Below are positions 13,113 to 62,967 of a stretch of 64,000 nucleotides of DNA, piece by piece. The notes under the pieces are model-generated. The model had not been told where the DNA came from. It saw only the letters and a program-made list of their open reading frames with translations, and ran no database searches. Positions within the stretch are counted from its first letter, which is position 1; each line of letters begins with the position of its first letter. This stretch comes from Eledone cirrhosa (lineage: Eukaryota). The stretch spans positions 260,524,001-260,588,000 of the forward strand of contig OZ024740.1 of NCBI GenBank assembly GCA_964016885.1. The letters are read 5' to 3'. The position numbers and the translations under genes were made by a program.

Positions 13113-13930
13113 GCTTTCTTTATTAACCACAAGGTTTTACACAAAGTAGACATTAAGGACAGTACAGGACAATACAGGACGGTACAAATGGGCATTTATG
13201 CATGTAACTCTCCCCCCCCCCCCCCCAAAAAAAAAAAAACAGAGGATGTAATAAAAAGAACAATGAAAAATTCCCCAATAGGGGGGAGACTTCTGAGGGC
13301 CATCTTCAGACGCGTCCACCATACTATCTCTTTCGCCATGGCCACCAGACAGATAAAAACTGCCTGCCCTTCCCGGCTAAAGGAAGAGGGCGGGGCAATC
13401 CTCACGATGGACTCAGCTGATGGCCGGATCCGTTCTACACGCGTCAGCAGGTGTTCGACATAAACCCACATGTCAGCAATGCTGACGAGTGCATGCAGGA
13501 CGGTTTCGTCGCCCAGCGTGCATCTCGGACATGCCCGGCTGACGGCACTTCCATGCCTGTAGAGTATATCCCGAACTGGCAAAGCTCCTCGGTAGCACTG
13601 CCAGGCTAGGAATTTCTGGAAATTGTCCATAGGCCCCGGCCCGAAAGTCCTTCCGAAGAGATTGGCTAGTTGATTTTCGTTGACGCCTAGAGTTTCCCCA
13701 AGCACGTCGTCGCTCTTCCCCTCCACTAATCCTCTATAGAACGCCAAGGTGGAGTTTCCACCGATCACATTGCCCGATTGGTCGAGGACCGTGAGCGCCT
13801 GAAGACATTCCAGTGTCCAATCGCTCCCTCTCTGTCTTCGCTTGACCCAGGACTGCAGCTCCGTCAAGGAGACGAGCTGGGGAAAGACGCGTCTAGCAAA
13901 CGGCGACCACACCTGATCACCGTCGAGGAA
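13113..13930 (-). mobile_element. Tx1-type 3' fragment, 3' UTR type B
   Basis: Homologous to 11690-12310 (CPRCTLGDETVLHAL); 5' side abuts (AAT)n at 13931. Confidence 0.88.
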
Positions 13931-13954
13931 AATAATAATAATAATAATAATGAT

Positions 13955-14438
13955 GATTTCTTTATTGGCCACTAGGGCTGATATCAAGAAAAACATTATA
14001 GACGGCACAGGACGGTACAGGACGGTACGATGTGGATTTTGTGCGTGTAAAGATTTTTATTATTTATATAAGAAACGAAAAAGAAGAAAAAGTCATAGAA
14101 ACACATATATATATAAACAATAAAAATGAAAATTCAAACAATGAAAAATTCCCCAATAGGGGGGAAACCTCCGAGGGTTACTCGTGGCGAAAACCACACG
14201 AAAGATCACAGCCACCCTGACCACCAGGGCAAGCGCCCTCTCTCAATTTTTCCATTTCTCAAACTACAAGCGTATATTCAGAGCGGTCCCGTTCACTTGG
14301 ACTATTCTCGCTACATTCACCCACCTTTCAACAAACTTGCTAGAAGACAGCACTTGCCTCTCCACCCTTATTTTCCTCTTCAAGTGAAACTTGAAAAAGT
14401 TAATTAGGGATTCGCTGAAGAGGAAAGTGTCTGTCTTA
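13955..14438 (-). mobile_element. Tx1-type 3' fragment, 3' UTR type A
   Basis: Close copy of 11201-11670; (AAT)n on both sides. Confidence 0.88.
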
Positions 14439-17619: not shown

Positions 17620-18905
17620 TATGAGGGGGCTTCAAAAAGTTTGTGGAAAAAGTACATAGCTAAAAATCATACGCAGAGATTTTGATCTCAATGCACCTGT
17701 ACGTTCTCGTAGTAACATGCCATAACATGTTCTAATATGAACCCTTAAATGCATGTTGCAACACGGCACCGCCATTCGTAAGTCAGCTCCCGCTCGAGCA
17801 ACATGACCGCCATCAAAATTGAGGCCAGGACACGCATCAAATTCATGGTGAAGTTAGGATGGAAGAGCAGACAAATCATTGACGTTCTGGAACAAGTTTA
17901 TGGGGACAATGCCCCACAAAAATCAACAACATACAAATGGATAAGTCGTTTTAGAAGTGGAAGAGATGAGGTTGAAGATGATCCCCGCAGTGGCAGGCCA
18001 TCCACGTCAGTCTGTGTGGAAAACATCGATGCTGTTTGCGACCTAATAAAAAAGGATAGGCGAATAACTGTTGAATCAGTAGCCAGTACACTCAACATCT
18101 CTGTGGGTTCTGCACACGCAATTCTGGTGGAGAGTTTGGGGCTGAGCAAGCTTTCCGTTCAATGGGTCCCAAGATTGTTGCATCCAGATCAGCAGCAAAC
18201 AAAGGCAGATATTTCGATGGAAAGTTTGAACAAGTGGGATGAAGACCCTGAAGCTTTGCTGCAGAGAATTGTTACAGGGATGAAACGTGGCTCTACCAGT
18301 ACGATCCTGAGGACAAAACTCAATCAAAGCAGTGGCTGCCCAGGGGTCGAAGTGGGCCAGTCAAGGAAAAATCGGAACGTATATGAGTGAATATTATGGC
18401 CACTGTCTTCAGGGATACCGAGGGGATTTTGCTGGTTGACTTCCTCGAGAACAAGAGAACAATTACAGCTGGATATTATGAAGACGTTTTGAGAAAACTG
18501 GTCAAGAAAATTACGGAAAACGCCTGGTGAAGCTGCATCGGCGCGTCGTCTTGCGCCACGACAATGCGCACGCTCACACCACTTGGCAGACACAAGCTGT
18601 TACGCGAATTTCAATGGGAAATAATCCGATACCCACCTTACAGTCCCGATTTAGCCCCATCCGATTTCTTTTAGTTTCCAAACCTGAAAACAATCATTGA
18701 AAGGTACCCATTTTCTATCAGTTGAACATGTAAAAAAAGCTGCTTTGACATGGCTTAAATCGCATGACCTTCAGTTTTACACAGATGGACTTAAAGGCTG
18801 GTATCAATGCTTGTATAAGTGTATTGACCTAGATGGAGCATATGTTGAAAAATAAACTTAAACCATTTTATCCAACTGTCCTTTTTCCACCCTTTGAAGC
18901 CCCCG
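17620..18905 (+). mobile_element. Tc1/mariner (DD34D) DNA transposon, full length, degraded
   Basis: Left TIR ta-tgagggggcttcaaaaagtttgtggaaaaag; right TIR remnant ctttttccaccctttgaagcccccg; about 1.29 kb. Confidence 0.92.
17803..18855 (+). pseudogene. Mariner transposase, frameshifted
   Basis: DDPRSGRP, WVPRLL, IVTG(D)ETW, HDNA, YPPYSPDLAPSDF. Confidence 0.92.
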
Positions 18906-19435: not shown

Positions 19436-19795
19436 GGTGTGAGTGAACTGTGTAATGGAAAATACAAGTTTAGTAAGTTCCTTAGTGTGGTCAGAGCAAA
19501 AAAGCAACAAAACTAGGTTTGTCAGCTTACCAAACTGTAAGTTGAAATTATTTTATTTGGGAGAATGGAGGTACATAATTTGAAGAAGCGAGGTGCATAT
19601 TGTAGGGTTAGCTTAGGGAGTTCAAAACCAAAGTACACATTCTAGAGCTAGCCTAGGGTGCTAAATACCCACGTGCACATTGTAAAGATAGCCTAAGCTG
19701 CTAAATACCCAGGCACGCATTGTAGAGCTAGCCAAGAAGTCTAAATACCCAGGTACACATTTTAGAGCTAGCCTAGGGTTCTAAATAACCAGGCA
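19436..19795. repeat. Left arm of a diverged inverted repeat containing an approximately 40-bp minisatellite
   Basis: ctaaatacccaggtacacatt.tagagctagcctagggt units; aaaactaggtttgtcagctta matches the reverse complement near 21740. Confidence 0.8.
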
Positions 19796-20059
19796 CCAAG
19801 TCTGCAGAGAGTCACATATAATAGAGACCTACTCTTCTTGTTACAAATAGTACATTGCCCTTGAGAAATTTAACAAAAACAATGCCATTGTAAAAAGCTG
19901 GTTTAGAAGACATGGCGTTTAATTAGGAGTATGGGGCCCTATTAACTTAAACCTTCTAGAACCTGATTTAGGGGGAATGGGGCTTAATTAGGAGCATGGG
20001 CTCCTATTGGTTTAAATCGTTCATGACCGTATTTCTAATGGAATACTCTGTATTTGAAT

Positions 20060-21321: not shown

Positions 21322-21830
21322 GTACCTGGTTATTTTGGTGTTCTAGGCTAGCCCTGCAATGTGTACCTGGGGATTTAGCACCCTACAATGTGTGCCTGGC
21401 TATTTACCACTCTAAGCTAGCCCTGCAATATGTACCTAGGTGTTTAGCACAGTAGGCTGGCCCTATAATATGTACCTGGGTATTTAGCACAGTAGGCTGG
21501 CCCTATAATATGTACCTAGGTATTTAGCACAGTAGGCTGGCCCTATAATATGTACCTGGGTATTTAGCACTCTAGGCTAGCTCTACAATGTGTATCTGGG
21601 TATTTAGCACTCCAGGTTAACATTATAATATGTACCTGGGTATTTAGCTCCCTTGACTGGCCCGACAATGTGTACCTGTATTACCCTAGGCTGGGTGCTC
21701 CATTCTCCAAAATAAAATCCTTTCCCCTTACAGAATAATAAGCTGACAAAACCTAGTTTTTTACACTAAGACCAAACTAAGAAAATTACTAAGCCTACAT
21801 TTTCCAAACACACTCCACACTCACCCACAC
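21322..21830. repeat. Right arm of the inverted repeat, about nine 40-bp minisatellite units
   Basis: tgtacctgggtatttagcac.gtaggctggccctataata units. Confidence 0.85.
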
Positions 21831-27982: not shown

Positions 27983-28028
27983 AATTGTCGATGCATTTCA
28001 GACTTAACTGGTCTTCATCAGGACGATC
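27983..28028 (-). ncRNA. Minimal type I hammerhead ribozyme
   Basis: guc CUGAUGA agac-caguuaa-gucu GAAA ugca UC gac. Confidence 0.88.
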
Positions 28029-29024: not shown

Positions 29025-30219
<1,195 letters not shown>

Positions 30220-30336
30220 GACAAACATAGAATATTCTATTCTGTATGTTTATAATAAACATTTTGAAGACCTAATCGCTATAGGATAGAATACGTCACG
30301 TATTACAATTTGAGATTCTCGATAAAAGCAAGGGAA

Positions 30337-30379
30337 GTAACCTACGCGTTTCATTCTTATTAGAAATCTTCAGGATTAC
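30337..30379 (-). ncRNA. Minimal type I hammerhead ribozyme
   Basis: guaauc CUGAAGA u-uucu-aaua-agaa-u GAAA cgcg UA gguuac. Confidence 0.9.
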
Positions 30380-30648
30380 ATATCCAATGCTTTTATCGAG
30401 AATGACACAGCTAGAGACTTATAGAATACTTAGCTGTGTACAGGAACTGGTTTGAAAGAGCGGTTGCCGGTCTGGCAGAAATTAGAATTTGGATTTAATG
30501 CTCTGAAATAGCGATATATATGTGAAGACAAACATAGAATATTCGAAAATATTCTGTATGTTTATAATAAACATTTTGAAGACCTAATCGCTATAGGATA
30601 GAATACGTCACGTATTACAATTTGAGATTCTCGATAAAAGCAAGGGAA

Positions 30649-30691
30649 GTAACCTACGCGTTTCATTCTTATTAGAAATCTTCAGGATTAT
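30649..30691 (-). ncRNA. Minimal type I hammerhead ribozyme (tandem copy)
   Basis: Same motif 312 nt from the first. Confidence 0.9.
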
Positions 30692-30745
30692 ATATCCAAT
30701 GCTTTTATCGAGAATGACACAGCTAGAGATAAAAGCATTGGATAT

Positions 30746-30788
30746 GTAATCCTGAAGATTTCTAATAAGAATGAAACGCGTAGGTTAC
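30746..30788 (+). ncRNA. Minimal type I hammerhead ribozyme (inverted copy)
   Basis: gtaatc ctgaaga tttctaataagaat gaaa cgcg ta ggttac. Confidence 0.9.
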
Positions 30789-30945
30789 TTCCCTTGCTTT
30801 TATCGAGAATCTCAAATTGTAATACGTGACGTATTCTATCCTATAGCGATTAGGTCTTCAAAATGTTTATTATAAACATACAGAATATTTTCGAATATTC
30901 TATGTTTGTCTTCACATATATATCGCTATTTCAGAGCATTAAATC

Positions 30946-31017
<72 letters not shown>

Positions 31018-32160: not shown

Positions 32161-33630
32161 GATGGGATAATATAGTTAGTAGGTGCCTCTAAAGACAAAA
32201 GAGAGATGATTACAGAGAGAGAGAGACAAAGGGGAATAATTTATGTTCAAGTTTATAGACAATTATCCATATATACAATATATATCTAAACTTATTTGGT
32301 TGACTGTTAATATTCAAAATATTTAATTTAAGTTAGTTCAGAGTAATGAATAATATTTTAGGTATTAAAAGTTAATAGATATCCGTATTAATATTATAGT
32401 ATACTATCAAGTTTAATTTCTAAAATTCAAATTTTATGAAATCAAATTTAAAGGATTTACAAACACGAGAAAGAAAATATAATGTTTTTATACCCTCACG
32501 AAGGTAAACTTTACCAAAATTATTTATAATATTGACAACAGTTTATATAATATAATTTATAAAATAATTATAGTTACAATTATTAAAGAATTTATGATTA
32601 ACAATTTGAGTGCCGAAAGGATCACAAATGCTCATTATCGAATTTTAATAGGAAGTCTTCCACTTCTTTATTACAACTTATATGGTCATTAAAAGACAAA
32701 CATTTCAAATACTCGATTTTTTGGACGAAGCTTTGTAATAGTAAAATATACTCGAACTCGTCTATATCAACTAACTGCAAACTCTGCACAAAGGAGACCC
32801 GATTGATAATTACTAATTATGAAAACTTAATTAACAAAAAAAGTGAATTATTCTCAAACTGCCTTCATGTTTGTAAATCCTTTAAATTTGATTTCATAAA
32901 ATTTGTATTTTAGTAATTAAACTTGATAGTATACTATAATATTAATACAGATACATATTAACTTTTAAAACCTAAAATATTATTCATTACTCTTAACTAA
33001 CTTAAATTAAATATTTTGAATATTAACGGTCAACCAAATAAGTTTAAATATATATTGTATATATGGATAATTGTCTATAAACTTGAACATAAATTATTCC
33101 TCTTTGTCTCTCTCACTCTCTGTAATCATCTCTCTTTTGTCTTTAGAGGCACCTACTAACTATATTATCCCATCAGCTGTTCCTCCTCTATGCTTTACTT
33201 TCTTTCCTCTTTCTTCAGTAATTAAAATTTTTTTTAACAGTTATATTGATGCCATGTATTTTTTAAGCTGTATTACACGCACCCTCTCTATTGTATGTAT
33301 TATATATTTTTCTCATGTTCTCAACATTAAGGTATATAAATATTGAGTTTTGTCATATATTACTCACTACCATGACTGAATCTTAACCATCTACTATGTC
33401 AGGGTATGTCATGCATCATCTTATTTTATCTGATGAGGACGTACTGTTGAACTTAACTCAGTACCTCTGAAATATGTATAATAAAATATACTTGATCACA
33501 AGAATATCTATTTTGTTAATATTTTGAATTAATATTAATAACTCTGGAAAACCTTTCTCTGTTGAGTGCTTCCAATCTATTGTAAAACCCATTCTTTGAT
33601 TTATTCATTAAACCTTGTTTAACTTTTAAA
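32161..33630 (+). mobile_element. 5'-truncated PLE with inverted segment
   Basis: 32161-32466 is the reverse complement of 32868-33174; degraded endonuclease C-terminus (NKKSELFSNCLH); hammerhead in the 3' region. Confidence 0.75.
33422..33488 (+). ncRNA. Type I hammerhead ribozyme in PLE 3' region
   Basis: uauuuuau CUGAUGA ggacguacug...caguaccucu GAAA uaugua UA auaaaaua. Confidence 0.85.
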
Positions 33631-34376: not shown

Positions 34377-34458
<82 letters not shown>

Positions 34459-34463
<5 letters not shown>

Positions 34464-35094
34464 TATTGAAGTTTGCTTGAAGCATTGTGGAATAATAAGT
34501 AAATATCTTTAAGTCGTTTGGAAGCCTCGACAATGCAAATGAGTAAATCTCCGGGTAACAAGATCCGGTGGTGGAGAGAGAGATGTAAGTGGGTGTACGT
34601 TGAGATGCGTGGTGTGTATGAGATGTGTAGAAGAATGAAGGAAAGAGTATAAAGGATAAATTTAAAATAACAACACGAGAGAGAGTTACCTTGGGAGAGA
34701 TTTAATAGTCCCTATATATTTCGGATTCACATCCATCAACTGGGGTTTTTTCCGAGGTGGGGGAAAGGTTGTCTGTCGGACAGGTGCGAACGCGTCCTCC
34801 GCTGTTTGTTGTTTTGAATATCTGAGGTATTCGGCAGAGCGAGCGTGCGCGTGAAATGGGGTCGGTCGGGCAGAGGTCAGCGGCCGAATGAGGCAGTGGG
34901 GTGGCGCTAGCTGTCAGTCCATTCTCTGCCTGTTTGTTAAATGTTACTGTGTGTGTGTGTGCGTGTGTTGTTGTCTCGCTTGAGTGTGTGTGTGTGCGCG
35001 AGTGTTGTTGCCTTGTTCCTCTGTATTGGCAGTGTAGTATGTTCGTATGGTGGAATGCTACTGTGTGTGTGTGCGTGTGTGTGTGTAGTTGTCT

Positions 35095-35136
<42 letters not shown>

Positions 35137-37321
35137 TGTTCCTGCATCGTTTGTTAGCTTAAACCAGCCATCTCATTTCGCTTCTCTCTGATCGGTTGTT
35201 TATTTGCGGTTGCATGCGTTTAATAAAAAGCGCTTCCTTGATACGTAACGTGCCGACGTTTCTTTCAGTCGCTAGAATTGTGACAATGGGCCTTCCGTCT
35301 TTGTTTCCGCATTTGTCTATGTGTTTCCGGAAAGACGAGGCCCTGGTTTTAGTGTGTTCCTTGATCCGGATGTGCAAAGGTCGGATTGTGCTACCTATGT
35401 AGTATTGGTTGCACCTGTCACATTCTATCTTATACACGACGTATGTGCGTAGGCAACAGTTCGCATGGCGTATCGGGCAGTCTCTGAGGGAGCATGCGTC
35501 AGTAGATTTCCCGGGTTTCCTGGAGAGGCATCTTCGCAGGGAGGGGCCCGAGTGGGCCAGGTGGATGTCGACGCCCTCCCTCCGTATAGCCTTGCGGATA
35601 GCGTTGGTGGTATCCTCGCCCAGGTGTGGCATTTTAAGGAAGCACTTTCCTTGGGTGCCTCTCTGTCTCTTGCGTCTGGCGTCTCCTATTCTGTCTGTGA
35701 TCGAGGTAGGGTACCCGTTCGTCTCCAGCACCTCGAGGAACCGCTTGGTATGAGTGACACCACTCGCGGGATCGCTGCATCTGTTTTTGATATCCTCATC
35801 CTCATATCTTCCCAAGACACGGCGTACAGAATCTATGAGACGTTCAACAACACGGACGAGAACATTGACTTCAACGTTGAACACCCCAACGAAGACGGGT
35901 CACTTGCCCTCCTCGACTTCCGAATCAAAATCACGGAACAGGGAAGGATCCACTGCAACTTCTACCGAAAGGCAGCCTGCAGGGACCTGTTCGTTCACTA
36001 CAAGTCCGCCCTCCCAAACAGTGCCAAAAGAGGATACATCACGTACGAGATCGCGCGAATCAAAAACAGATGCAGCGATCCCGCGAGTGGTGTCACTCAT
36101 ACCAAGCGATTCCTCGAGGTGCTGGAGACGAACGGGTACCCTACCTCGATCACAGACAGAATAGGAGACACCAGACGCAAGAGACAGAGAGGCACCCAAG
36201 GCAAGTGCTTCCTTAAAATGCCACACCTGGGCGAGAATACCACCAACGCTATCCGCAAGGCTATACGGAGGGAGGGCCTCGACATCCACTTGGCCCACTT
36301 GGGCCTCTCTCTGCGAAGATGCCTCTCCAAGAAACCCGGGAAATCTACTGACGCATGCTCCCCCAGAGACTGCCCGATACGCCATGCGAACTGTTGCCTA
36401 CGCACATACGTCGTGTATAAGATAGAATGTGACAGGTGCAACCAATACTACATAGGTAGCACAATCCGACCTTTGCACATCCGGATCAAGGAACACACTA
36501 AAACCAGAGCCTCATCTTTCCGGAAACACATAGACAAATGCGGAAACATAGACGGAAGGCCCATTGTCACAATTCTAGCGACTGAAAGAAACGTCGGCAC
36601 GTTATGTATCAAGGAAGCGCTTTTTATCAAACGCCTGCAACCACAAATAAACAACCGATCAGAGAGAAGCGAAATGAGATGGCTGGTTTAAGCTATCAAA
36701 CGATGCAGAAACACATGCACACACACACACGCACAATCGAGACAACTACACACACACAGTAGCATTCCACCATACGAACATACTACACTGCCAATACAGA
36801 GGAACAAGGCAACAACACTCGCACACACACACACACACTCAAGTGAGACAACACACGCACACACACACACAGTAACATTTAACAAACAGGCAGAGAATGG
36901 ACTGACAGCTAGCGCCACCCCACTGCCTCATTCGGCCGCTGACCTCTGCCCGACCGACCCCATTTCACGCGCACGCGCGCTCTGCCGAATACCTCAGATA
37001 TTCAAAACAACAAACAGCGGAGGACGCGTTTCGCACCTGTCCGACTGACAACCTTTCCCCCACCTTGGAAAACCCCCCAGTTGATGGATGTGAATCCGAA
37101 ATATATAGGGACTATTAAATCTCTCCCAAGGTAACTCTCTCTCGTGTTGTTATTTTTATTTTATCTTTTATACTTTTTCCTTCATTCTTCTACACATCTC
37201 ATACACACCACGCATCTCAACGTACACCCACTTACATCTCTCTCTCCACCACCGGATCTTGTTACCCGGAGATTTACCCATTTTCATTGTCGAGGCTTCC
37301 AAACGACTTAAAGATATTTAC
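34459..37321. mobile_element. PLE with CCHH-type GIY-YIG (Nematis-like), 5'-truncated, with an approximately 1.3-kb inverted copy
   Basis: 34459-35791 is the reverse complement of 36059-37321 plus a 40-nt tail; flanked by (TA)n. Confidence 0.92.
35789..36691 (+). pseudogene. PLE RT C-terminus, thumb and GIY-YIG endonuclease (open but 5'-truncated)
   Basis: LALLDFRI, FYRKAA, HYKSALP, VVYKIECDRCNQYYIGST.R.L..R..EH, KEALFI..PQIN. Confidence 0.92.
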
Positions 37322-37412
<91 letters not shown>

Positions 37413-37527: not shown

Positions 37528-40500
37528 ATATACGATATTAACAAATGGAAACTATATTTATAAAACCATATCTATTTTATTATACATATTTCAAGGATAC
37601 CATGTTAAATTATGGTATGCTTTAAACAGACAAAATACAATATATATCAGTTTTATAAATAAATATTGACATACCCTTTCAAAATGCAACCGTTACTTTT
37701 GGAAGACATCAGGGATAGTGGATTTGTTTACTTATATTAGTAAGTCGTTGTGTTACGGAGAAGGAAAAAGACGGAGAGAGAGAAAGGCGGAGAGAGAAAG
37801 GCGGAGAGAGAAAGGGAGAAATAAAGAAAGAAAAAGAAAAAAAGAAAAAAGAGAAAAACGAAAGAGAGATATCAAAACACCAGACAGAGAGAAAAAAATC
37901 GAGAGAGAGAAATATAGAGATAGAGAGAAGGGGAGAGAACGAAAACCTTAAGTCATGTCATATTAAGTTAAGTTAACAATTGAGATGAAATGAATAAATA
38001 AAATTAGAAATATTAATATTCATGAATGGAATATACATATATAATATGAGAAATTAATCATTGTTTAACTATGATTAGATATTTAGTTTAAAAATTGAGA
38101 TCAATATATTAAAAATTGGAATTTAAACATTAAGAATCTATATATTGCTAGAGAAATTACATATCATATAACACGTACACACACGCAAAAATAAACATAA
38201 ATATATATATACACACACTCAGAAAATACACATCATATCTACCCCCGTATATAATATATACATACAAAGCATAAATGATTTTTTTTATTAAACTGATTTA
38301 CCAGTCAGATTAATTGCACCATCTAAATCTGACCTTGGCAGACTTAACAAAAATATTCTAGACAGAATAATACCACAAATTAAGAATTTACCTAATTTAT
38401 CTTACTTAAAATTATGGAAAGGAGCTAGTGAGGTTATCGATTGGTTTAAAGAAATTAAATATAACTATAATAATAAGTGTATTCAGTTGGATATTGCTAA
38501 CTACTACTCATCTATCACTCCTAATCTACTGAATAAGCCACTAACTTACGCATTTAAACATACAGACATAACTAGCAATGAAATGCACATTATATTATCG
38601 GCACGGAAAACATTAATAGAATTTAATAACCAACTCTGGACTAGGGCAGATAGAAATAATAATTTCGACATAACTATGGGATCTTCAGACTCAGCTCGGG
38701 TAACGGACTTGTGGGCCTATTTATAATTAATTCTCTACATAGAAAAATACCAGGTGTAACCGGAGGTTTATATCGTGACGACATGCTTTTACTTATAGAA
38801 AATAATAGCTGTGAACTAAATAGAAAAAGAAAACAAATTATACAATTTTTTAATTACCTTAATCTAAAAGTAGAAATAGAGAATAACCATAAAATAGTCA
38901 ATTTTCTAGATGTAACACTAAATCTTAACACATGTCTTCATTATCCATTTCACAAACTAAATGAGAACTTAAATTATGTCAATTTTAACTCTAATCACCC
39001 CAGATCCGTTAAAAATACTATAGTGAACTCTGTACAAGAACGAATTTCGAGAATTTCATCTAATAAGAATATATTTGATGAAAAAGCGCATTATTACAAC
39101 GATGCGTTAGGTAGAGCTGGGTATAGAAATAAAATTAAATACATCGATAATAGTAATAATATAAAAACTAACCAAAATAATAACAATTTTAACTATGGTA
39201 AGAATTTTAACAACTATAATAGAAAACATTACAATAATTCCGAAAGCCGAAAAAGAAATAGAACTAGGAACATAGTATGGTTCGCTCCTCCTTTCTCACT
39301 AAATATTAAAACCCCTATTGCTAAACTATTCTTTAAAGCTCTTGACAAACGCTTCCCTAGAATACATAGATATTACTCAATTTTTAATAGACATACTATA
39401 AAATTAACTTACTCTTCCACCAAAAATTTAGCGCAAAATATTAATAGAATTAATAATAGAAATTTAAAACCTAACCAAAATACCAATAATAACCCAAGCA
39501 ATATTCAATCGAATAATTGTAACTGTAGAAATAAATCCAACTGTCCGTTAAATAACAACTGCTTAGCTAATTTAAATTCATTTAATTATGTCGGATCTAC
39601 CTCCACAGAGTTTAAATCCCGCTTCAATAATCATAAAAATTATTTTACAGATCCAAACAAAAAATCTTCAACGTCGCTATCTAGCTTATTATGGGACCTA
39701 AAACGAGATAATGTTGAATATTCGCTGATTTGGAATATTATTTCAAAAGCTACTCCTTTTAATTCCTCTTCAGAAAATTGCGATCTTTGTATAGAGGAAA
39801 TATTCTTTATATTAAAGACCAAAAATTCCCTGAATTTAAGGAATAATTTATTCAGTTGCTGCAGACATAGATTGAACTCAACGTTTAAATATAAATATAA
39901 ATTTAAAATGTAGTATAATTAATTAAGTAATTTGGTTAATATATGAAACCTGTCGATAAATCATTAGATTCCTTCATCTTTTTCATTTTCTTTGGTTAAG
40001 TACTCAAGTATAAATAAATTGTCTTCCTAAATATAAATTTAAATATAATAAACGATTCTAGAGAAATATATCGAGAGCTCTTGAAAGGAGAAAATATTTC
40101 CTATTTCTTATTTTTTATATTTTTTATATTTTTTATATTTTTTATATTTTATATATTTTTTATATTTTTTATATCTTTTATATTTTTTATATTTTTCATA
40201 TTTTATTTATTTTTTATTAGGTTTGCTTTTATTCTGATAGCTTCTCATAATTTTCGAAAGTTTATCCTTTCAATATCTTGAGTAAAATATACGTAAGATA
40301 AATTTCTATACTAAATCTATTAAACATATTATTTTAACTTAAAATATTCTATAATATTTTAAAATATTTTAATATTTTAATATTTTAGAATTCTTTTGTT
40401 TTTAAGTTATATTGATATAATTATATTTCCAAAATATAATCCTTTTGTATTTTATGTACTCAATTATACTATGTACTATATTGATGTATACTTATCTCTA

Positions 40501-41534
40501 TACGTGTATGTATGTATATGTGTATATTAACATACATATACATGTGTTATATGCATTTTTATGAATATATGTCTGTCTGTATATATGCATGCGTGACGCG
40601 TGTCTACCAATTGGCTGAGAATGCACACACATGTTTATATATATATATGTAAGAATTGTGTGTACATGTACATGTGTACCCATACAATTTGATTGCAGAT
40701 AGACATAATTAACAGCCATAAATGCATGACAGCTAATCTTATATATTTATATATTTATATTAAACATTTTTATTTAATAACACAAAGAATGTATAACATT
40801 AATAAAAAAAATCATTTATGCTTTGTATGTATATATTATATACGGGGGTAGATATGATGTGTATTTTCTGAGTGTGTGTATATATATATTTATGTTTATT
40901 TTTGCGTGTGTGTACGTGTTATATGATATGTAATTTCTCTAGCAATATATAGATTTCTTAATGTTTAAATTCCAATTTTTAATATATTGATCTCAATTTT
41001 TAAACTAAATATCTAATCATAGTTAAACAATGATTAATTTCTCATATTATATATGTATATTCCATTCATGAATATTAATATTTCTAATTTTATTTATTCA
41101 TTTCATCTCAATTGTTAACTTAACTTAATATGACATGACTTAAGGTTTTCGTTCTCTCCCCTTCTCTCTATCTCTATATTTCTCTCTCTCGATTTTTTTC
41201 TCTCTGTCTGGTGTTTTGATATCTCTCTTTCGTTTTTCTCTTTTTTCTTTTTTTCTTTTTCTTTCTTTATTTCTCCCTTTCTCTCTCCGCCTTTCTCTCT
41301 CTCCGTCTTTTTCCTTCTCCGTAACACAACGACTTACTAATATAAGTAAACAAATCCACTATCCCTGATGTCTTCCAAAAGTAACGGTTGCATTTTGAAA
41401 GGGTATGTCAATATTTATTTATAAAACTGGTATATATTGTATTTTGTCTGATGAAAGCATACCATAATTTAACATGGTATAATAAAATAGATATGGTTTT
41501 ATAAATATAGTTTCCATTTGTTAATATCGTATAT
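37528..41534 (+). mobile_element. PLE (Hydra-clade-like), 5'-truncated, with a 760-bp inverted pseudo-LTR
   Basis: 37528-38291 is the reverse complement of 40799-41534; RT/EN body in between. Confidence 0.9.
38292..39913 (+). pseudogene. PLE RT plus GIY-YIG ORF, frameshift near 38705
   Basis: VRLIAP, LDIANYYSSI, FDITMGS, LYRDD, NFLDV, SNHP, WFAPPFS, CNCRNKSNCPL, YVGST..FKSRF.NH, CDLC, CRH. Confidence 0.9.
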
Positions 41535-41965: not shown

Positions 41966-42079
41966 GTTGCGACCGATAGAAAGTATTACCAATTGGAAAG
42001 ACCCATGGAAACATCGTTTCCTCGGTCCGATTTGACGAAAGTCGATCGACTGATATATATATATATATATATATATATA

Positions 42080-42481
42080 GGTATTAATATTGGTGCTCTG
42101 AAATAGCGATGTATATATGAATATATGTATAGTATATTTGGCAATACACTGTATGTTTACTTGAAAACATTTAGAAAACCATTCGCTATGAGTTTTTAAG
42201 TAGTGACTATGTCACTTACTTATTCTCGGTAAATAACAACTGCGAGTGATCGACAGAGAGTCTGTTTCTCGCTTGTGGGCGTTTATCAAGACAACACTCT
42301 GCCTTTGCCGATAATTATAGGAGCTGGATTCTTATAGAACTCCAGTAATAATCAGGAGCTGATAATACAGAGCGATTGCCTGTCCAGTAAAAATTAGGTA
42401 TTAGTATTGGTGATCTAAAATAGCGATGTATACATGTATGTATGTATAGTATATTTGGCAATGTACTGTATGTTTAATTAA
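42080..42481 (-). mobile_element. 317-nt retrozyme-like unit with about 85-nt terminal direct repeat
   Basis: ggtatta.tattggtg at 42080 and 42397; homologous to 58448-58752 and 30217-30524. Confidence 0.78.
42249..42292 (-). ncRNA. Hammerhead ribozyme, U3:A8 core variant
   Basis: guc UUGAUAA a-cgc-ccacaa-gcg-a GAAA cag-acucu-cug UC gau. Confidence 0.75.
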
Positions 42482-42499
42482 TGTAGTACATAAATTATA

Positions 42500-43500
42500 T
42501 AATATTCGTTCATTGTTTATTCAAAGTAATCCAACTTATTTTACTAACTGGATTAAAAGATATAAAACGGACGCTGTCACGCACTCCTCCCTTTATTATA
42601 GTATAGATTTCTATAATTCTTCGATGGATCATATCAAAAGGCAGTTCTTAGCCAGTATGTTCTGCCTTTGTGCTCATCGAGTTTGCATCGTAATTCTCTC
42701 GTTGCCTCTTGGTGATTTTCATATTGAACCTCTGTTTGCTGCAATAGTCTTTCTTCTTGCCTTAATCTTTCTGTTTCCTGTCTCAGGTTCTGTACACTTT
42801 TAGAAAGTTGCGATCGTCTTTCTTGTCTTCACTTTTCTGTTTCCCGTCTTATATTCTGCTGAATGTCACAATGTTGGCTTGTCCCTTTATTCCCAAGTCT
42901 TTTTTCTATATTGTTCGTGAGTTTCTCTTTCGCTTGAAGATTTCAACCGTTTGGTGGACATTGTAATTCCCCCGGTAGATGAGCGGTGTTTTGGTGACAT
43001 GATGAAATTAATTTTCTTGGAAAATATTGTGAAAAAAAACAAAACAATACAAAGCTATATAAAAAAAAAAAAAAATGCAAATAGCATCCTTAGAGAATAG
43101 ATTGACATTCTTCATCTGAATTAGGTCAATAATAACATGACACTATCCTCAAAAAGCTAGATTAATATACACCGTAATTAATTTAAAATAATATCAATTT
43201 CTTCTGTGTTCTGTAAATTCAAAGACTGGTGTAAAACGACTTTATAAAAGCTAACGCAATATTGTTAAACATTCAACTGATACTTTGATCTATAGTTTAA
43301 ACCAATTCTGTGGGACGTCTCACCCCACCCCTTTCTCTCTCTCTGAATATCTAACACTTTAATTGAATCTCTCTCTCTCTCTTTAGATGTGTGTGTGGGG
43401 GCGGGGTATGTGTGTGCGTGTGTGTAGGTTTGGTGTGATTAAACCAACCGACCAACCAACCAATAAACATCTCTCTTTTATATTATATATAGATATATAG
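42500..43500 (-). mobile_element. Helitron-type 5' termini and N-terminal ORF remnant
   Basis: atctatactataataaag end at 42608 (shared with 59938); MSPKHRSSTGG...AF*YDPSKNY; tataatataaaagagagatg+(ggtt)n end near 43490 (shared with 63697). Confidence 0.55.
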
Positions 43501-43534
43501 ATAATATATATGTCATTTATGTTAGGCTGTTTAC

Positions 43535-43691
43535 CAATGGGTAGAACTGGTGGTTCGGGTTGGCAAACGATGATACAAAAAATTTACTAAAGCACTCAAC
43601 GTTATGTAAATCATCCATCGTAGATGTGGTATCCAGTGGTTGGTGCAGGAACGGAGTAAAGTATTCTTTAAAACAACAGCAGAAGGCCGGA
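43535..43691 (-). CDS. Candidate host exon (157 nt), product unknown
   Basis: ttttccag acceptor, gtaaac donor, open frame PAFCCCFKEYFTPFLHQPLD...NHQFYPL; phase matches the exon at 43980-44042. Confidence 0.45.
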
Positions 43692-43979
43692 CTGGAAAAT
43701 TTATTTTAGAATTTTAATTCCGTGAAAGCACTATGCAAATTTTGATGGCCCAGCTCTATCATCCGATTATGATGTAAGACTAGACGATTTCATCAGGTGT
43801 TGTTTGTAGAATTATATGATAGGATTATGTTGAACCCAAAGAGAGAATAGAAAATACAAAGAAATTGAAAATAGAAAGTAGAGGGCCGATTCGTTTCGAG
43901 GACCGCCTGCCAACTTATTGTTATATCGATAGCAGACCATCTCTGATTATATATAGAGAGATTTGAGCACAGTACAAAC

Positions 43980-44042
43980 CGATCTGTACTGTAAAATCTA
44001 TTCATAAGGCACCTATTGTCATCTGTCGTAATGTCCATTTTC
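43980..44042 (-). CDS. Candidate host exon (63 nt), product unknown
   Basis: Polypyrimidine tract plus ctaag acceptor, gtttgt donor, KMDITTDDNRCLMNRFYSTD(R). Confidence 0.4.
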
Positions 44043-49196: not shown

Positions 49197-49198
<2 letters not shown>

Positions 49199-50227
49199 AA
49201 ATTGAAAAATTGAAGAATAACATGGTCGACAGTACCAACAAGGAAATTTATTTACAGTCTAACAATTGTTTCTATGATAGAGTTGTTTAAAAATTGCTAA
49301 ACACAGAAGGTAGTGTCACTCAATTTAAAATACATATTATCTCCATCATTTCGTCAGAGACCAAGAGAAAATAAGATAAATATGCGTAACGGTAAAATTA
49401 CAAATTCAAATTACAACTCTCGCCAACAAAATCTGGCAACTCAAGAATGCAAGCATTGAATACGAAATCAGTTGGACAATATTGTCAAAAGCAATGGCCT
49501 ATCAAATTGGTATGTCCCACGGCAGGCTCTGTAATATGGAACTTTTCCAAATTCTTAATTTCAGCAAAGTCCTTCTTAACAGTAGAATTGAACGAACTAT
49601 TTTTTGTCGGCACAAATCAGCAACGAAATTTGAGAACTTTAGACCTTCTTAATTCCATCTTTTCTATTCCTTATCCCTTTTATACCACTAGAATCTACTT
49701 CGATATCACATTATCAGCAGCATCGTCACCAAAGAACAACATCAAAACCTACTATATTTACATTCTCATCTTATACACCTCCATCTTTCACCATTTGTCT
49801 TTGCATTTCTCTACTTAAACCTATTTCATCTCGATCGTTTTATCTTATATAATACATCTTAAACTAGTTAATTTACTTATTAAAATAACCAATACACACA
49901 TAAATATATCCAATAGTATCATATTTTCAACTTATCATCTACCCATATCTAACAATCATCAATACCATTCACAATAACATTAATAACTTTAATATTATTC
50001 TTATTAGTCTCTTCAACACATTTATTTATTTATTGATTCTCATCTCTAGTTTTCAAATACTATACCATTTTATATAACAATATGTGTAACTTACTTATTT
50101 ACTCATCTACCTATTTATTTATTTATTTACTTTTTATTTATTTATTTATTATTTTAACCTTATTTAAAAATTTTTTTTTTTTTAATTTGTAATTTTTAAT
50201 TTTTTTACTTTTTTTAGTTTTGATTTC

Positions 50228-50262
<35 letters not shown>

Positions 50263-50997
50263 TTTTTTCTATGCTTATATCTCTATTTTCACTTGCACTC
50301 ATTCTTGCATTAACGTATATCCATCCTTCTGCTCCTCTTCCACCTTCTCTCCATCCTATTTCTGCCTATATTTATCAACAATAACTCATCCGTTCGCACA
50401 CCTTTTCTCTTCTTTCTTTCATTTGATGAACATGCTTGCGCATTTTTAGCAGTAATACCCTCCCGGTCTGCTTCCTTCTATATCTCTCTTTCTCTCTTTT
50501 CTTTTCTCTTTTTTCTTCATCTTTCTCTGCCTCTTTCTCTGTTTCTTTCTTCATCTTTCTTTTCTCTACCTTCACTATTTCTATTCACCCTCTTTTCTTT
50601 CTATCTGTAGCTCTATTAATACTACTATTTTGATGTGATAGTTTGAACTCGTAAATTTGCCGGTTACATATTTATTTGTATTTTCTTTCTCTCTATCGTC
50701 TTTCCTCCTCCCCTCCTTTCCATCTGTCTTCCTTCATCTGTTTCTCTATATCTTTATTATTAATATTAATATTGATGTGGTAATTTGAATTTGTAATTTT
50801 ACCGTTACGCATATTTATTTTATTTTCTCTTGGGCTCTGACTAAATGATGGAGATAATATGTCTTTTAAATTGAGTGACACTACCTTCTGTGTTTAGCAA
50901 TTTTTAGACAACTCTATCATAGAAACAATTGTTAGACTGTAAATAAATTTCCTTGTTGGTACTGTCGACCATGTTATTCTTCACTTTTTCAATTTTA
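49197..50997 (+). mobile_element. 5'-truncated PLE with a 220-bp inverted terminal copy
   Basis: 49197-49415 is the reverse complement of 50780-50997; TTLANKIWQLK..YEISWTILSKA..RLCNME..CRH. Confidence 0.82.
49257..49361 (-). ncRNA. Type I hammerhead with long stem II (damaged twin at 50833-50937, plus)
   Basis: gucu CUGACGA a-augauggag...cucuaucau-a GAAA caauug UU agac. Confidence 0.82.
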
Positions 50998-51354: not shown

Positions 51355-52579
51355 GTATATATACATATATACATATATATATATACATATATATATAAAT
51401 GACTTAGCTTCTACCTTCAATGAGTTAGGCCTTAGGATAACAGTAGCCACCAACCTCTCTAGCCTAGATTTCTTAGACATTAATTTAGACCTTCGCAGGC
51501 ACACCCACAGACCCTTCCATAAGCTAAACGAGAAACTTAATTACATTCACAAGGACTCATGCCCCCCCCCCCCACTGTTTTTAGAAACTTCGTTAAGAAT
51601 ATCAGTACTAGAATCTCAAACCTCTCCTCTAATAAGGCTATCTTTGACAGGGCGGCACCCTACTATAACACGGCGTTGGCTAAAAGCGGCTTCTCACAAC
51701 CTATCACCTACTCACCCACTAGCAACAACGCCATTAAGAAAAGTAAGCGCATCAATAGACAAACTATCTGGTTCTCTCCTCCATTCTCACTCAACGTTAA
51801 AACCAATGTAGGAAAAAAATTTCTAGCCTTCTTAGATAGACACTTCCCCATAGGTCATAAATACCGCTGCATCTTTAACCGACACAAAGTTAAACTAGGC
51901 TACTCCTGCGCTAAGAACATGAAGGCCCACATCACCAGCAGCCCTAGGAGCAACACCCCACCAGGGTGCTCTTGCCGTAAGCCTGAAGCTTGCCCCCTTC
52001 AACAACAATGCAACACACCAGCTGTAATCTATGAAGCTGTGGTCACTTCCAACCGACCAAACGAACCACAGGAGGTCAAATCCTATGTGGGCATTGCGGA
52101 GGGCCGATTCAAGGAGCGTTTCCTGAACCACCAGTCTACCTTCAGATACCCGGACAGATGTTCATCCACGAAACTCGCGAGCCACGTATGGTCTCTCAAG
52201 GACTCAAGTATAGGGTACTCCATTCAACGGAAAGCCATCACTAAGTCCAAGCCATACACAAGGGGAAATCCGACGTGTGGCTTATGTATTGACGAGCGAA
52301 TAACTATCCTAAAGAGATTACGCAATAGTGATTGCCTAAACACGAGAAGTGAATTTTTCACACATTGTCCACACGTCATCAAACATCTATTTCATAACTA
52401 CAAGGCTCCGGACTGATTCTTTGTAATTTTATTTTCAACCAAAAAACTTTCCGGACTTTCGCAGTTATCTCCCTTACACCCCCCCGCATGCAGTCTAGTA
52501 TTGCCTGTGTGAAGTGACCGAGTTTCTGCGCATGCGCGTTCGTACGGTTTTCCTTCCTGTTCCTATAACCATACACATC

Positions 52580-52619
52580 CCGAGCTGAAGATCCGCGAAG
52601 GTGAAACAATTGTTCTCGG
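52580..52619 (+). ncRNA. Minimal type I hammerhead, upstream pseudo-LTR
   Basis: ccgag CUGAAGA u-cc-gcgaa-gg-u GAAA caauug UU cucgg. Confidence 0.85.
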
Positions 52620-52872
52620 TTTGGTGAACTAACTGTTGTGTAACCACTTCTAGCTAACTCGTCCCTTGGACTGAGTGCTCTACCACTACGTATATTACCT
52701 TCCAGTGTTCCACCACTATCTACGTCTCCAACAGCGGTCAGCAGATTCTCCTCACTACGTAGAAGTTTGGCTTTTAGCAGATTCTTCACCACGTGCGAGT
52801 TTGGCTTACTACCCTGAGAGCGCTCTATATATCCTCGTGTCCTACACAATTTTGCGTCTCATCAACGTCAGT

Positions 52873-54974
52873 ATGGATTTATACGAACTGAATTACTCCC
52901 TGAAGAACATTCCAACTCCCTTCAACCATGTTTACCAAAAGCTCCTTCTACAAAAAGCGGAAGATGTCGTCAGACGCCTAAGATGGCGAGCCCTAGCTTT
53001 CGACGGCAAAATTACAGGCACAAACAACACCTTCAACCTGAAATCGAGAGCCTACCTTCCTAAGGTAACCGAACTTGCTCCTTTCGAGACGGACCTTCTT
53101 GACTTAGTCACTAACATTTCCTTTCGCAAACACACTAACACCTTTCAAACGAAACTCAGAAACGATATTAAGAAATTTAGGTCTTCTAATAACACTTTCG
53201 TTCTTTCCGACAAAACTAATAATATTTACGAAGTCGACAACACCACTTTCCGCCACCTGACCCATAACGCTATTACTTCTAAATATAAGAAAGCTAACCC
53301 TATAGCCTACCAGGACATTAATACAGAAGCCAAAGAACTCGCCACCGACCTTAAGGTAGATAAGAAGCTACAATCTCTAGCTAAGCGGGAGGCGTTCCTC
53401 ACCCTGAAAGATCATAAGGTAGACTTTACTTCTAACCCCACATGTAGACTAATAAACCCGGCACGCACAGATAGGGGACTAGTCAGTAAGGCCATACTTA
53501 GAAACATAGTTAAGACCATTAGGATCAAGTCCAGCCTGTCCCAGTGGGCGAACAGCGACTCCGTAATTAAGTGGTTTAACTCCTTCAAATACAAAAAAGC
53601 GAAGTTCACACAGTTTGACATTGTCGATTTTTACCCGTCGATCTCAGAGACCCTGTTAAACAAAGCGTTGGACTTCGCTACCACTTATACCACCATCGAT
53701 GGTTTAGACAGGGAAATCATCGCTCACTGCCGGAAAACCCTCCTCTTCAACGACGGAGTAGCCTGGGCAAAGAAGTCTACATCTTCAACCTGTTCGACGT
53801 CTCCATGGGATCGTTTGACAGTGCTGACGTATGTGACTTGGTTGGCTTTTTTATCTTAGACATATTACGTGTTAGATTCCCGGACTTCCATACGGGAATA
53901 TACCGTGACGATGTACTAACTTTATCGAACCATAAAAGTGGTCACGACCTCGACCGGTTTAAAAAAGCTTCTACCTTCAATGAGTTAGGCCTTAGGATAA
54001 CAGTAGCCACCAACCTCTCTAGCCTAGATTTCTTAGACATTAATTTGGACCTTCGCACGCACACCCACAGACCCTTCCATAAGCTAAACGAGAAACTTAA
54101 TTACATTCACATGGATTCATGCCACCCTTCCACTGTTTTTAGAAACTTCGTTAAGAATATCAGTACTAGAATCTCAAACCTCTCCTCTAATAAGGCTATC
54201 TTTGACAGGGCGGCACCCTACTATAACACGGCGTTGGCTAACAGCGGCTTCTCACAACCTATCACCTACTCACCCACTAGCAACAACGCCATTAAGAAAA
54301 GTAAGCGCATCAATAGACAAACTATCTGGTTCTCTCCTCCATTCTCACTCAACGTTAAAACCAATGTAGGAAAAAAATTTCTAGCCCTCTTAGATAGATA
54401 CTTCCCCATAGGTCATAAATACCGCTCCATCTTTAACCGACACAAAGTTAAACTAGGATACTCCTGCGCTAAGAACATGAAGGCCCACATCACCAGCAGC
54501 CCTAGGAGCAACACCCCACCAGGGTGCTCTTGCCGTAAGCCTGAATCTTGCCCCCTTCAACAACAATGCAACACACCAGCTGTAATCTATGAAGCCGTGG
54601 TCACTTCCAACCGACCAAACGAACAACAGGAGGTCAAATCCTATGTGGGCATGGCGGAGGGCCGATTCAAGGAGCATTTCCTGTACCACCAGTCTACCTT
54701 CAGATACCCGGACAGACGTTCATCCACGAAACTCGCGAGCCACGTATGGTCCCTCAAGGACTCAAGTATAGGGTACTCCATTCAACGGAAAGCCATCACT
54801 AAGTCCAAGCCATACGCAAGGGGAAATCTGACGTGTGGCTTATGTATTGACGAACGAATAACTATCCTAAAGAGATTACACAATAGTGATTGCCTAAACA
54901 CGAGAAGTGAATTTTTCACACATTGTCCACACGTCATCAAACATCTATTTCATAACTACAAGGCTCCGGACTGA
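52873..54974 (+). pseudogene. PLE RT plus GIY-YIG ORF (about 700 aa), one frameshift near 53780
   Basis: YSLKNIP, SDKT, TLKDHK, CRLINP, FDIVDFYPSI, MGSFD, IYRDD, WFSPPFS, CSCRKPESCPL, VIY..YVG, CGLC, CPH. Confidence 0.92.
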
Positions 54975-58322: not shown

Positions 58323-58854
<532 letters not shown>

Positions 58855-60031: not shown

Positions 60032-60432
60032 AAAATTTGTTTTCGTTCTAACACGGTGGATTCTTAAATGTATTCATGAGTGAAAAATAATAATATTATA
60101 ATAATATCATTAATATTCGTTCCGTTTGCAAGCAAAGAGCTTCATGACACAGTGTGTTTTTTTTCTAGACAGCTTACGTCATCCTTTTGTTCCAACGGTA
60201 GCAGAGAGAGAAAAGTCTACAATTGTTTCAGAGTTATTTCCCCTTATCAAGACTGTGTATTCCCGCTGGAACTGTTGAGAATACATATTATTCTCTATTA
60301 TTCTCTACTGTATACATCGGCTGATTAGCCTTATTTGCATACTGAGCAATTTTCCGACTGGCTGTGTCAGAAATTAAAAACAAAATTTGTTTTAGCTCTA
60401 ACATGGCGGTTACATAAATATCATTATTATTC
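60032..60432 (-). mobile_element. Older 350-nt retrozyme-like unit with diverged terminal repeat
   Basis: aaaatttgtttt...ctaaca at 60032 and 60382; shares cggctga..agcct.atttgcata with 29480-29503. Confidence 0.6.
60214..60254 (-). ncRNA. Hammerhead ribozyme, U3:A8 core variant
   Basis: aguc UUGAUAA gggg-aaauaa-cucu GAAA caauug UA gacu. Confidence 0.8.
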
Positions 60433-62324: not shown

Positions 62325-62967
62325 TATTAATAATGAGTTCAAAACTCAGGCAGTCCTTTACAATGAAATAGCTCAAAGAAAGAAGTATTTCTGAGCCGTG
62401 TAATACAAGTTAATATAAATTAATATATTTGATAAACACAAATACCAACATATCCATGTTTGTATTGTAAATGACTAAGTTAGCTAGATTGAAATATACT
62501 AGTTATAATAATACAGTTTGCCTGTCTCGATTTAAAATAATAAATCAATAAAAACAAAGCATATTGGCAAATGGCCGTGGTGCTTGGACAAATTTAAATT
62601 TCAAAATCAAACCTGTTCCGTAGACAGGTTTAAACCTTAAAATCCAAATATGTTTCGAAAAATGAAAAAGTGAAAGAATACCGCATTTTGATCTCCTCAG
62701 CAAGTATTAAATATTTTGGAGTGAAACATACCAATTTTTCTAATATGAAGTTATGTTGCACATAAACGATATCGTCCAGGAGTCGGAATTTTTACTTATA
62801 TCTCTAACAAAGCACAGTCACCGTATCTGCTGTTTATTAGAATGTGTGCACTCTAAAGAGCTAGTTGCAGTTGCATTATTGCAATTTGGCAGATTCACTG
62901 AGTGGGCTAGACGTTGGCCAGGGACTGTTGACATAGTATCATCGATCTTCGTTTTAATTATATTAAT

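Follow-up and report, generated by a model that had tools for sequence, protein, structure and literature searches.

A type I hammerhead ribozyme motif with a U3-A8 core, probably inherited from its parent element, in a non-coding repeat of Eledone cirrhosa

Results

A Penelope/retrozyme-like repeat insertion

The window, by which we mean the whole 64,000-nucleotide stretch analysed, is AT-rich, microsatellite-rich DNA crowded with retroelement remains, with a GC fraction of 0.35 across 42001-44000. At 42 kb it holds a non-coding repeat insertion that we place in family A, together with a sibling unit at 58 kb and a third, more distant subfamily at 30 kb (Table 1). The insertion begins and ends with an 85-nt direct repeat (42078-42162 and 42395-42479; 9 of 85 positions mismatched), and no open reading frame of at least 120 amino acids lies within 42078..42479. 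Units of family A are about 315 nt long, (TA)n-adjacent and Penelope/retrozyme-like. Compared with dinucleotide shuffles, folding of whole units gave z-scores of -4.9, -4.1 and -5.2, with 0, 1 and 0 of 100 shuffles as stable.

The 1.27-unit copy at 42 kb, the tandem with its inverted copy at 30 kb and the (TA)n flanks together form a Penelope-like pLTR arrangement; in passages of PMC8557442, Penelope-like elements are said to have (TA)n targets, partial tandems and inverted copies lying next to one another. None of the five family A copies in the window adjoins the end of a Penelope-like ORF (reverse transcriptase plus GIY-YIG), which would make the unit a solo pLTR or else a retrozyme-like derivative that is non-autonomous. 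Solo pLTRs are common, according to an excerpt of PMC4209133. The unit also has the make-up of a retrozyme, being non-coding, AT-rich, within 150-450 bp (periods 317 and 312) and provided with one type I hammerhead. At least two complete tandem units occur in the 30-kb subfamily only (two); the 42-kb and 58-kb copies have one ribozyme each. A 32-letter flank pattern gave 0 matches in JGI metagenomes.

Hairpins lie upstream of the ribozyme at 42318-42362(-), 58650-58690(-) and 30410-30450(-). By eye, they look conserved over the three subfamilies, and the 30-kb copy seems to have altered yet complementary arms.

Table 1. Features of the window (positions count from its first letter)
Feature	Position	Strand	Remarks
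Non-coding repeat insertion, family A	42078..42479	-	1.27 copies of a 317-nt unit
(TA)n tract	42053..42079	.	borders the element at its 3' end
Type I hammerhead ribozyme motif, U3-A8	42246..42295	-	
Core positions 3-9, UUGAUAA	42283..42289	-	
Stem I, 5' strand	42290..42295	-	opposite strand 42251-42246; 5 of 6 pairs formed in this copy
Stem II	42269..42282	-	A.A at 10.1-11.1 (42282, 42269); 3 pairs in this copy
Core G12-A13-A14-A15.1	42265..42268	-	
Stem III	42253..42265	-	5 bp and 3-nt loop; 42258 differs from relatives
GUC triplet (42254-42252) and predicted cut	42251..42254	-	cut between 42252 (C17, hammerhead numbering) and 42251
Sibling unit, family A	58443..58752	-	between microsatellites
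Sibling hammerhead, C3-G8	58575-58620	-	core CUGAUGA within 58581-58614; 10-nt palindromic stem III
Third family A subfamily, outgroup	30230..30972	.	two units in tandem (period 312), one inverted copy
C3-G8 hammerheads of the third subfamily	30343-30373, 30655-30685, 30752-30782	-, -, +	
Second U3-A8 hammerhead (UUGAUAA), family B	60218..60250	-	
C3-G8 relative, family B	27990-28021	-	
C3-A8 single mutant, family B	29384..29414	-	first stem I pair also broken
C3-G8 hammerhead, family B	29895-29925	+	inverted twin of 29384-29414
Inverted-repeat regions	34428-37345, 37597-41480, 49197-50997, 29324-29985, 30487-30950		
Reverse-transcriptase ORF and other mobile-element remains	3998-7621, 8891-11097, 11497-14056, 16364-17008, 17782-18390	+, +, -, +, +	

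The motif at 42 kb

The minus strand at 42292-42249 is a type I hammerhead motif of the U3-A8 variant. It reads, in order, stem I (3 bp), UUGAUAA, stem II, GAAA, stem III, the GUC site and the 3' strand of stem I; three helices surround the core, and helix I forms the open end. In hammerhead numbering, U3 is 42289, A8 is 42284, G12 is 42268 and C17 is 42252. The invariant core is present (U4 G5 A6, A9, G12 A13 A14 and A15.1-U16.1), the NUH site is GUC, and positions 3 and 8 can form a Watson-Crick pair, U3-A8. The base pair at 10.1-11.1, usually G-C in the canonical consensus, is absent, its place being taken by A.A. A reading made earlier from the sequence only had set UUGAUAA in this copy against CUGAUGA in its sibling, and the minus-strand reading of both cores bears this out.

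All three stems contain a mismatch, with 5 of 6, 3 of 4 and 5 of 6 pairs formed in stems I, II and III. Because one pair is lost per stem and A.A stands at the base of stem II, the copy is probably weak or inert today. The hammerhead fold differs from the predicted minimum-energy fold (-4.5 vs -5.9 kcal/mol), as it does in the 58-kb sibling (-4.3 vs -8.8 kcal/mol). In stability the local fold at 42 kb is unexceptional (z +0.5 and -0.4); these z-scores do not single out the motif and were therefore kept out of the evidence.

Descriptor searches and Rfam

A strict descriptor that leaves positions 3 and 8 free found 8 motifs in the 64-kb window (6 C3G8 and 2 U3A8). On 40 block-wise dinucleotide shuffles, it found 0.075 motifs per shuffle, with U3A8 at 0.025 per shuffled window. 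A looser descriptor found 10 motifs, against 0.87 per shuffle over 60 shuffles. An A3-U8 match from this looser scan (62471-62496) lies within the chance expectation of 0.87 and was left out of the counts given below, and a motif at 33430 that the scan had missed was added to them. Matches at 7457, 36563 and 16789, which have long loops and lack both the family architecture and a shuffle control, were not counted.

Rfam returned 0 matches over the window at the gathering score, which 0 of 10 hammerhead cores reach. At E<=10 the 42-kb copy has no hammerhead match, only two unrelated weak ones. Its 58-kb sibling scores 18.4 bits (E 0.021) against Hammerhead_HH9 (RF02275, clan CL00010), whose gathering score is 52. 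Score and 10.1-11.1 pair were both tested, and since the first falls short and the second is absent, we did not file the 42-kb motif under a canonical Rfam family.

Differences between the 42-kb and 58-kb siblings

By blastn, the two repeats agree at 75.6% over 401 columns (E 9e-71). Identity reaches 87% (93/107) and 80% (97/122) in the flanks and 60% (47/78) in the ribozyme region. Among the 11 invariant core letters, the copies differ at positions 3 and 8 only. In stem I, four of the six pairs are altered on both sides, one is altered on one side and one is broken in the 42-kb copy; in stem II, one of five positions is altered on both sides, two are identical and two are unpaired in at least one copy. 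Simple models give a probability of 0.007-0.025 that two random core changes would land on 3 and 8 and be complementary, for a case that was picked post hoc. With the C3-G8 subfamily at 30 kb as outgroup, parsimony points to U3-A8 as the derived state.

Other hammerheads in the window

Core counts over the window are 7 C3G8, 2 U3A8, 1 C3A8 and 0 U3G8. The Fisher test on these counts is not significant (p = 0.067, or 0.107 with the 30-kb copies collapsed), so the window alone does not prove covariation. Homology inside family B, to which the second U3-A8 hammerhead belongs, is weak (blastn over 39-41 nt, E about 0.001).

At 10.1-11.1, the ten hammerheads of the window carry A.A once (the 42-kb copy), U.U five times (in two subfamilies), G.U twice and A-U twice. 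This position is unpaired in 6 of the 10, with a short stem after each. Stem III is a perfect palindrome in 8 of the 9 motifs other than the 42-kb one.

In family B, ATGCAAAT stands 88-92 nt upstream of position 3 in each of the four hammerheads; the element occurs 10 times in the window and is missing from family A. We take ATGCAAAT to resemble an octamer promoter element, and it may belong to an internal promoter. The hammerhead at 33430-33480(+) is of a third type, whose stem II is long, and it follows a Penelope-like endonuclease remnant (32602-32895) at a distance of about 535 nt; two decayed relatives (about 37575-37630(-) and 41447-41490(+)) lie in the inverted repeats that flank the ORFs at 38292-39913.

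Relatives in reads and contigs

Relatives were collected by aligning sequences on 42170-42410 at 80% likeness, a cut that favours sequences resembling the 42-kb copy. Four of seven runs were used: X1 (2091 contigs), X5 (2236 RAD-seq reads) and X6 (2046 RAD-seq reads) from organism A, which may be another species, and X4 (22 contigs) from organism B; X2, X3 and X7 were left out. The RAD-seq reads of X5 and X6 are dominated by few loci, and site-to-site linkage is absent from the alignment output.

The positions of U3 and A8 (42289 and 42284) and of the A.A pair (42282 and 42269) are not among the 40 of 92 differences listed, in which the lowest best-run share is 0.19. From this we infer that other letters make up less than about 19% in the relatives at U3 and A8, and below about a fifth at all four positions. 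A.A at 10.1-11.1 is apparently common to the 42-kb subfamily.

Three sites of the motif do differ in most relatives, namely 42293, 42278 and 42258, with shares of 0.88-0.99 in X1, X5 and X6; the X1 contigs behind them number 31, 35 and 29, respectively. At each site the majority letter turns a mismatch of the 42-kb copy into a pair, repairing all three of its private stem mismatches. The X1 majority form has a 6-bp stem I, a 4-bp stem II (fourth pair 42278-42273) and a 13-nt self-complementary stem III, and its letters put into the 42-kb stems give 6, 4 and 6 pairs. In most relatives stem III is self-complementary over 13 nt save for an unpaired base at its centre, and the 42-kb copy is one base short of this. 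Variants at 42249 and 42250 preserve pairing. A variant at 42273, from one of the dominant RAD-seq loci, breaks the fourth stem II pair, with shares of 0.70 and 0.85 in X5 and X6 that come from 2-3 starts, and with 0 X1 contigs.

At 42306, loose ends from 17 contigs and from 137 and 181 reads, with an agreement of 0.73-0.91, have the U3-A8 core behind a different stem I and so represent a second U3-A8 subfamily. A loose end at 42300 (4 contigs) is ambiguous at the core and was left out. Across family A, stem III measures 13, 10, 9 or 6 nt, and each version either is self-complementary or falls short of it by one central base (read from 42253-42265, 58582-58591, 30344-30349, a loose end at 42229 and a 4-letter gap at 42255).

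X1 depth is 180,000-330,000 on the flanks and about 470-2,200 over the ribozyme, figures that we do not take as copy number; the collapse indicates that most family members carry a different ribozyme sequence. The ribozyme region as a whole (42233-42305) is far more variable within family A than its flanks, at 60% vs 80-87% between siblings and with X1 depth roughly two orders lower.

Against the X1 majority, the 42-kb copy has 13-16 differences over 241 sites (5.4-6.6%), a divergence that matches half of that between its terminal repeats (9/85), and it is about 5-6% decayed. U3 and A8 appear common to the subfamily and the private changes of the 42-kb copy break stems, which argues for a parent that was already U3-A8 and a copy that decayed later. 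U3-A8 in this copy thus looks inherited and not a product of decay.

Other mobile-element remains

Among the Penelope-like ORFs of the window, the one at 35453-36688 is the only one with Pfam support (GIY-YIG, E 4e-4, below the cut-off). Five others match no Pfam family, and from their motifs we presume them to be Penelope-like. A partial tandem of a Penelope-like ORF lies at 51541-54974(+), with two endonuclease-side copies 95% identical in protein. Long inverted repeats of up to 677 nt, 93-100% complementary, surround Penelope-like ORFs and ribozyme units, an arrangement described for Penelope-like elements. The remains also include a reverse-transcriptase ORF (Pfam RVT_1, E 4e-20) and, going by their motifs, what we take to be further fragments of LINE type, one resembling a helicase and one resembling a mariner transposase. 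A 40-nt tandem repeat at 21341-21717 has an inverted relative about 1.6 kb off (19591-19796).

Discussion

A decayed copy of a U3-A8 parent element

We consider it likely that the 42-kb motif is a decayed type I hammerhead of a high-copy, non-coding unit of about 315 nt, of Penelope-like pLTR or non-LTR retrozyme kind, in a subfamily whose parent was U3-A8. The parent would already have carried U3-A8 instead of C3-G8. In the active fold C3 and G8 pair (PMC3884650, in part), and cleavage uses G12 as general base and, as general acid, the 2'-OH of nucleotide 8 (portions of PMC6155905). The 3-8 pair would position nucleotide 8 for this acid role, with G12 acting as the base, so that any Watson-Crick pair at 3-8 could work. 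The parent RNA would cut after GUC at 42252. It could do so as a monomer, whose stem III would have 5 bp, or as a dimer held together by the self-complementary stem III. The cleavage would yield unit-length RNA, which a Penelope-like reverse transcriptase/endonuclease may copy in trans into (TA)n sites. After insertion, the 42-kb copy would have drifted by about 5-6%, losing one pair per stem. The double change itself may have passed through a U3.G8 wobble step or been rescued by an intact partner in a dimer.

The sequence-only reading had proposed covariation instead of decay. This proposal is supported, since U3 and A8 seem to be subfamily-wide, the rest of the core is unchanged and UUGAUAA is found in two other contexts. 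Its further claim, that the element was under selection for catalysis, would apply to the parent element but not to the decayed copy at 42 kb.

Alternative explanations

A first alternative concerns the origin of the core only. U3-A8 might not have arisen through two steps within family A; instead, recombination or template switching might have brought in the 5' half of the ribozyme from a different U3-A8 family. Sequence variation is much greater in the ribozyme than in its flanks (identity of 60% vs 80-87%; X1 depth of about 470-2,200 vs as much as 330,000), and GUC stands 5' of position 3 in all three U3-A8 contexts. However, GUC also precedes position 3 in the C3-G8 copy at 27990, and the 42-kb and 58-kb copies have in common a stem III core sequence, their GUC site and stretches of stem II with its loop. 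We regard such an acquisition as improbable; it can hold together with the explanation that we prefer, as the function would be the same.

Slightly less probable still is a subfamily parent that was nearly inactive with its U3-A8 core and A.A, and that spread because an active partner core, in tandem or in mixed dimers, cut its site, or because copying did not depend on cleavage. A.A at the base of stem II seems subfamily-wide, excerpts of PMC4209133 report poor in vitro cleavage of Penelope-type hammerheads, and Naiad elements amplify without canonical hammerheads (PMC8557442, in part). Yet the relatives pair better than the 42-kb copy in all three stems and keep the remaining core intact, U.U occupies the same position in two other subfamilies of the window, and the axolotl ribozyme HHR_Amex2 cleaves despite U.U at the base of helix II, to go by a passage of PMC7229834.

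Neutral decay after insertion, with C3>U and G8>A arising by chance as common transitions in an AT-rich genome, appears very unlikely. Both changes are transitions toward A/T, the copy is about 5-6% decayed, and a C3-A8 single mutant is present in the window (29384-29414). Against it stand the probability of 0.007-0.025 for complementary changes at 3 and 8 under simple models, the recurrence of UUGAUAA in two other contexts, and the relatives, in which neither C3 nor G8 is a majority letter although they expose other private changes of the 42-kb copy. A chance resemblance to a hammerhead can be dismissed with near certainty: the lack of an Rfam match at E<=10 and the ordinary stability of the local fold (z +0.5 and -0.4) would fit it, but U3A8 motifs come at only 0.025 per shuffled window with the strict descriptor, and positional homology with four C3-G8 hammerheads of family A, its C3-G8 siblings, refutes it.

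A broader reading, which we offer tentatively and hold to be rather doubtful, is that family A might represent a natural mutational scan, in which a conserved and structured carrier of about 315 nt bears a fast-turning ribozyme cassette, C3-G8 has become U3-A8 several times independently (in the 42-kb subfamily, in the second one seen in reads and in family B), and 10.1-11.1 is freely replaced by A.A, U.U or G.U. If true, dimer complementation, in which an intact core cuts the site of a mutant partner, could explain how the single-mutant step is crossed. A genome-wide count of the family would make the spread of a compensatory double change in a ribozyme testable, and likewise the question of whether hammerheads of the dimer type can do without a 10.1-11.1 pair.

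Comparison with known systems

Within Rfam, the nearest model is Hammerhead_HH9. The 58-kb sibling covers it end to end (58560-58632), but its score lies under the 52-bit gathering threshold, and the U3-A8 copy has no hammerhead match at E<=10.

Natural U3-A8 cores are in print. In the available text of Perreault 2011 (PMC3088659), C3-G8 covaries to U3-A8 in several natural hammerheads, with activity already shown in vitro; that work is a survey across the domains of life and is not tied to this repeat. Cervera and De la Pena 2014 (PMC4209133, in part) arrived at U3-A8 by way of Cercyon, a Penelope-like element of Schistosoma mansoni, with about 1,300 hits, after their first descriptor had missed it, and they note extreme variability of the motif within a genome. 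In itself, then, the variant matters little, with natural U3-A8 cores published and about 1,300 hits in one flatworm genome. That UUGAUAA would escape CUGANGA searches, as the sequence-only reading also stated, is true by definition; Rfam has no hammerhead match here at E<=10, and the descriptor in the part of PMC4209133 consulted behaved likewise. CUGANGA strings serve in some hammerhead surveys (PMC8557442, in part). Such descriptors and Rfam undercount hammerheads in genomes of this kind, 2 of the 10 window cores being U3-A8.

The likeness to Cercyon, as far as the same portion of PMC4209133 describes it, includes U3-A8 beside C3-G8 relatives in one genome and mostly single, dispersed motifs, and, with related metazoan variants, a highly variable ribozyme with a self-complementary stem III. 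Cercyon differs in its minimal motifs, in which helix II is long (7-8 bp), the G10.1-C11.1 pair is conserved and helix III is nearly absent. In contrast, the 42-kb family has a helix II of 4 bp after A.A and a helix III of 5-6 bp, and an attached ORF was not found. It does show the features by which PMC4209133 recognises Penelope-type variants: a self-complementary helix III or loop 3 that allows dimers, and large, sequence-variable families with covarying stems. Penelope-type hammerheads cleave slowly or poorly in vitro, and likely as dimers (PMC4209133 and PMC6765202, both in part).

The metazoan non-LTR retrozymes of Cervera and de la Pena 2020 (PMC7229834, in part) are non-coding, AT-rich units of 150-450 bp with a type I hammerhead each. 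Unit size and ribozyme type agree with those found here, and HHR_Amex2 offers a parallel for the mismatch at the base of helix II; with its U.U it reaches 22% cleavage in 1 h as a monomer, and more as a dimer. Retrozymes are proposed to derive from Penelope-like pLTRs, according to an excerpt of bioRxiv 10.64898/2026.07.22.740005, in which 1 of 9 genomic retrozyme dimers tested cleaved. They are defined on tandem arrays and circular RNA, and differ in this from the short arrays seen here in DNA only (1.27 units; two plus an inverted one). For an active U3-A8 core closed by A.A we found no description, in a search too weak to call A.A undescribed, and published supplements may already list family A or the A.A variant.

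Judged by its sequence features, the 42-kb motif would belong with the metazoan hammerhead variants of Penelope/retrozyme type. The U3-A8 swap itself is of a kind already published, and the 42-kb motif is a further natural example.
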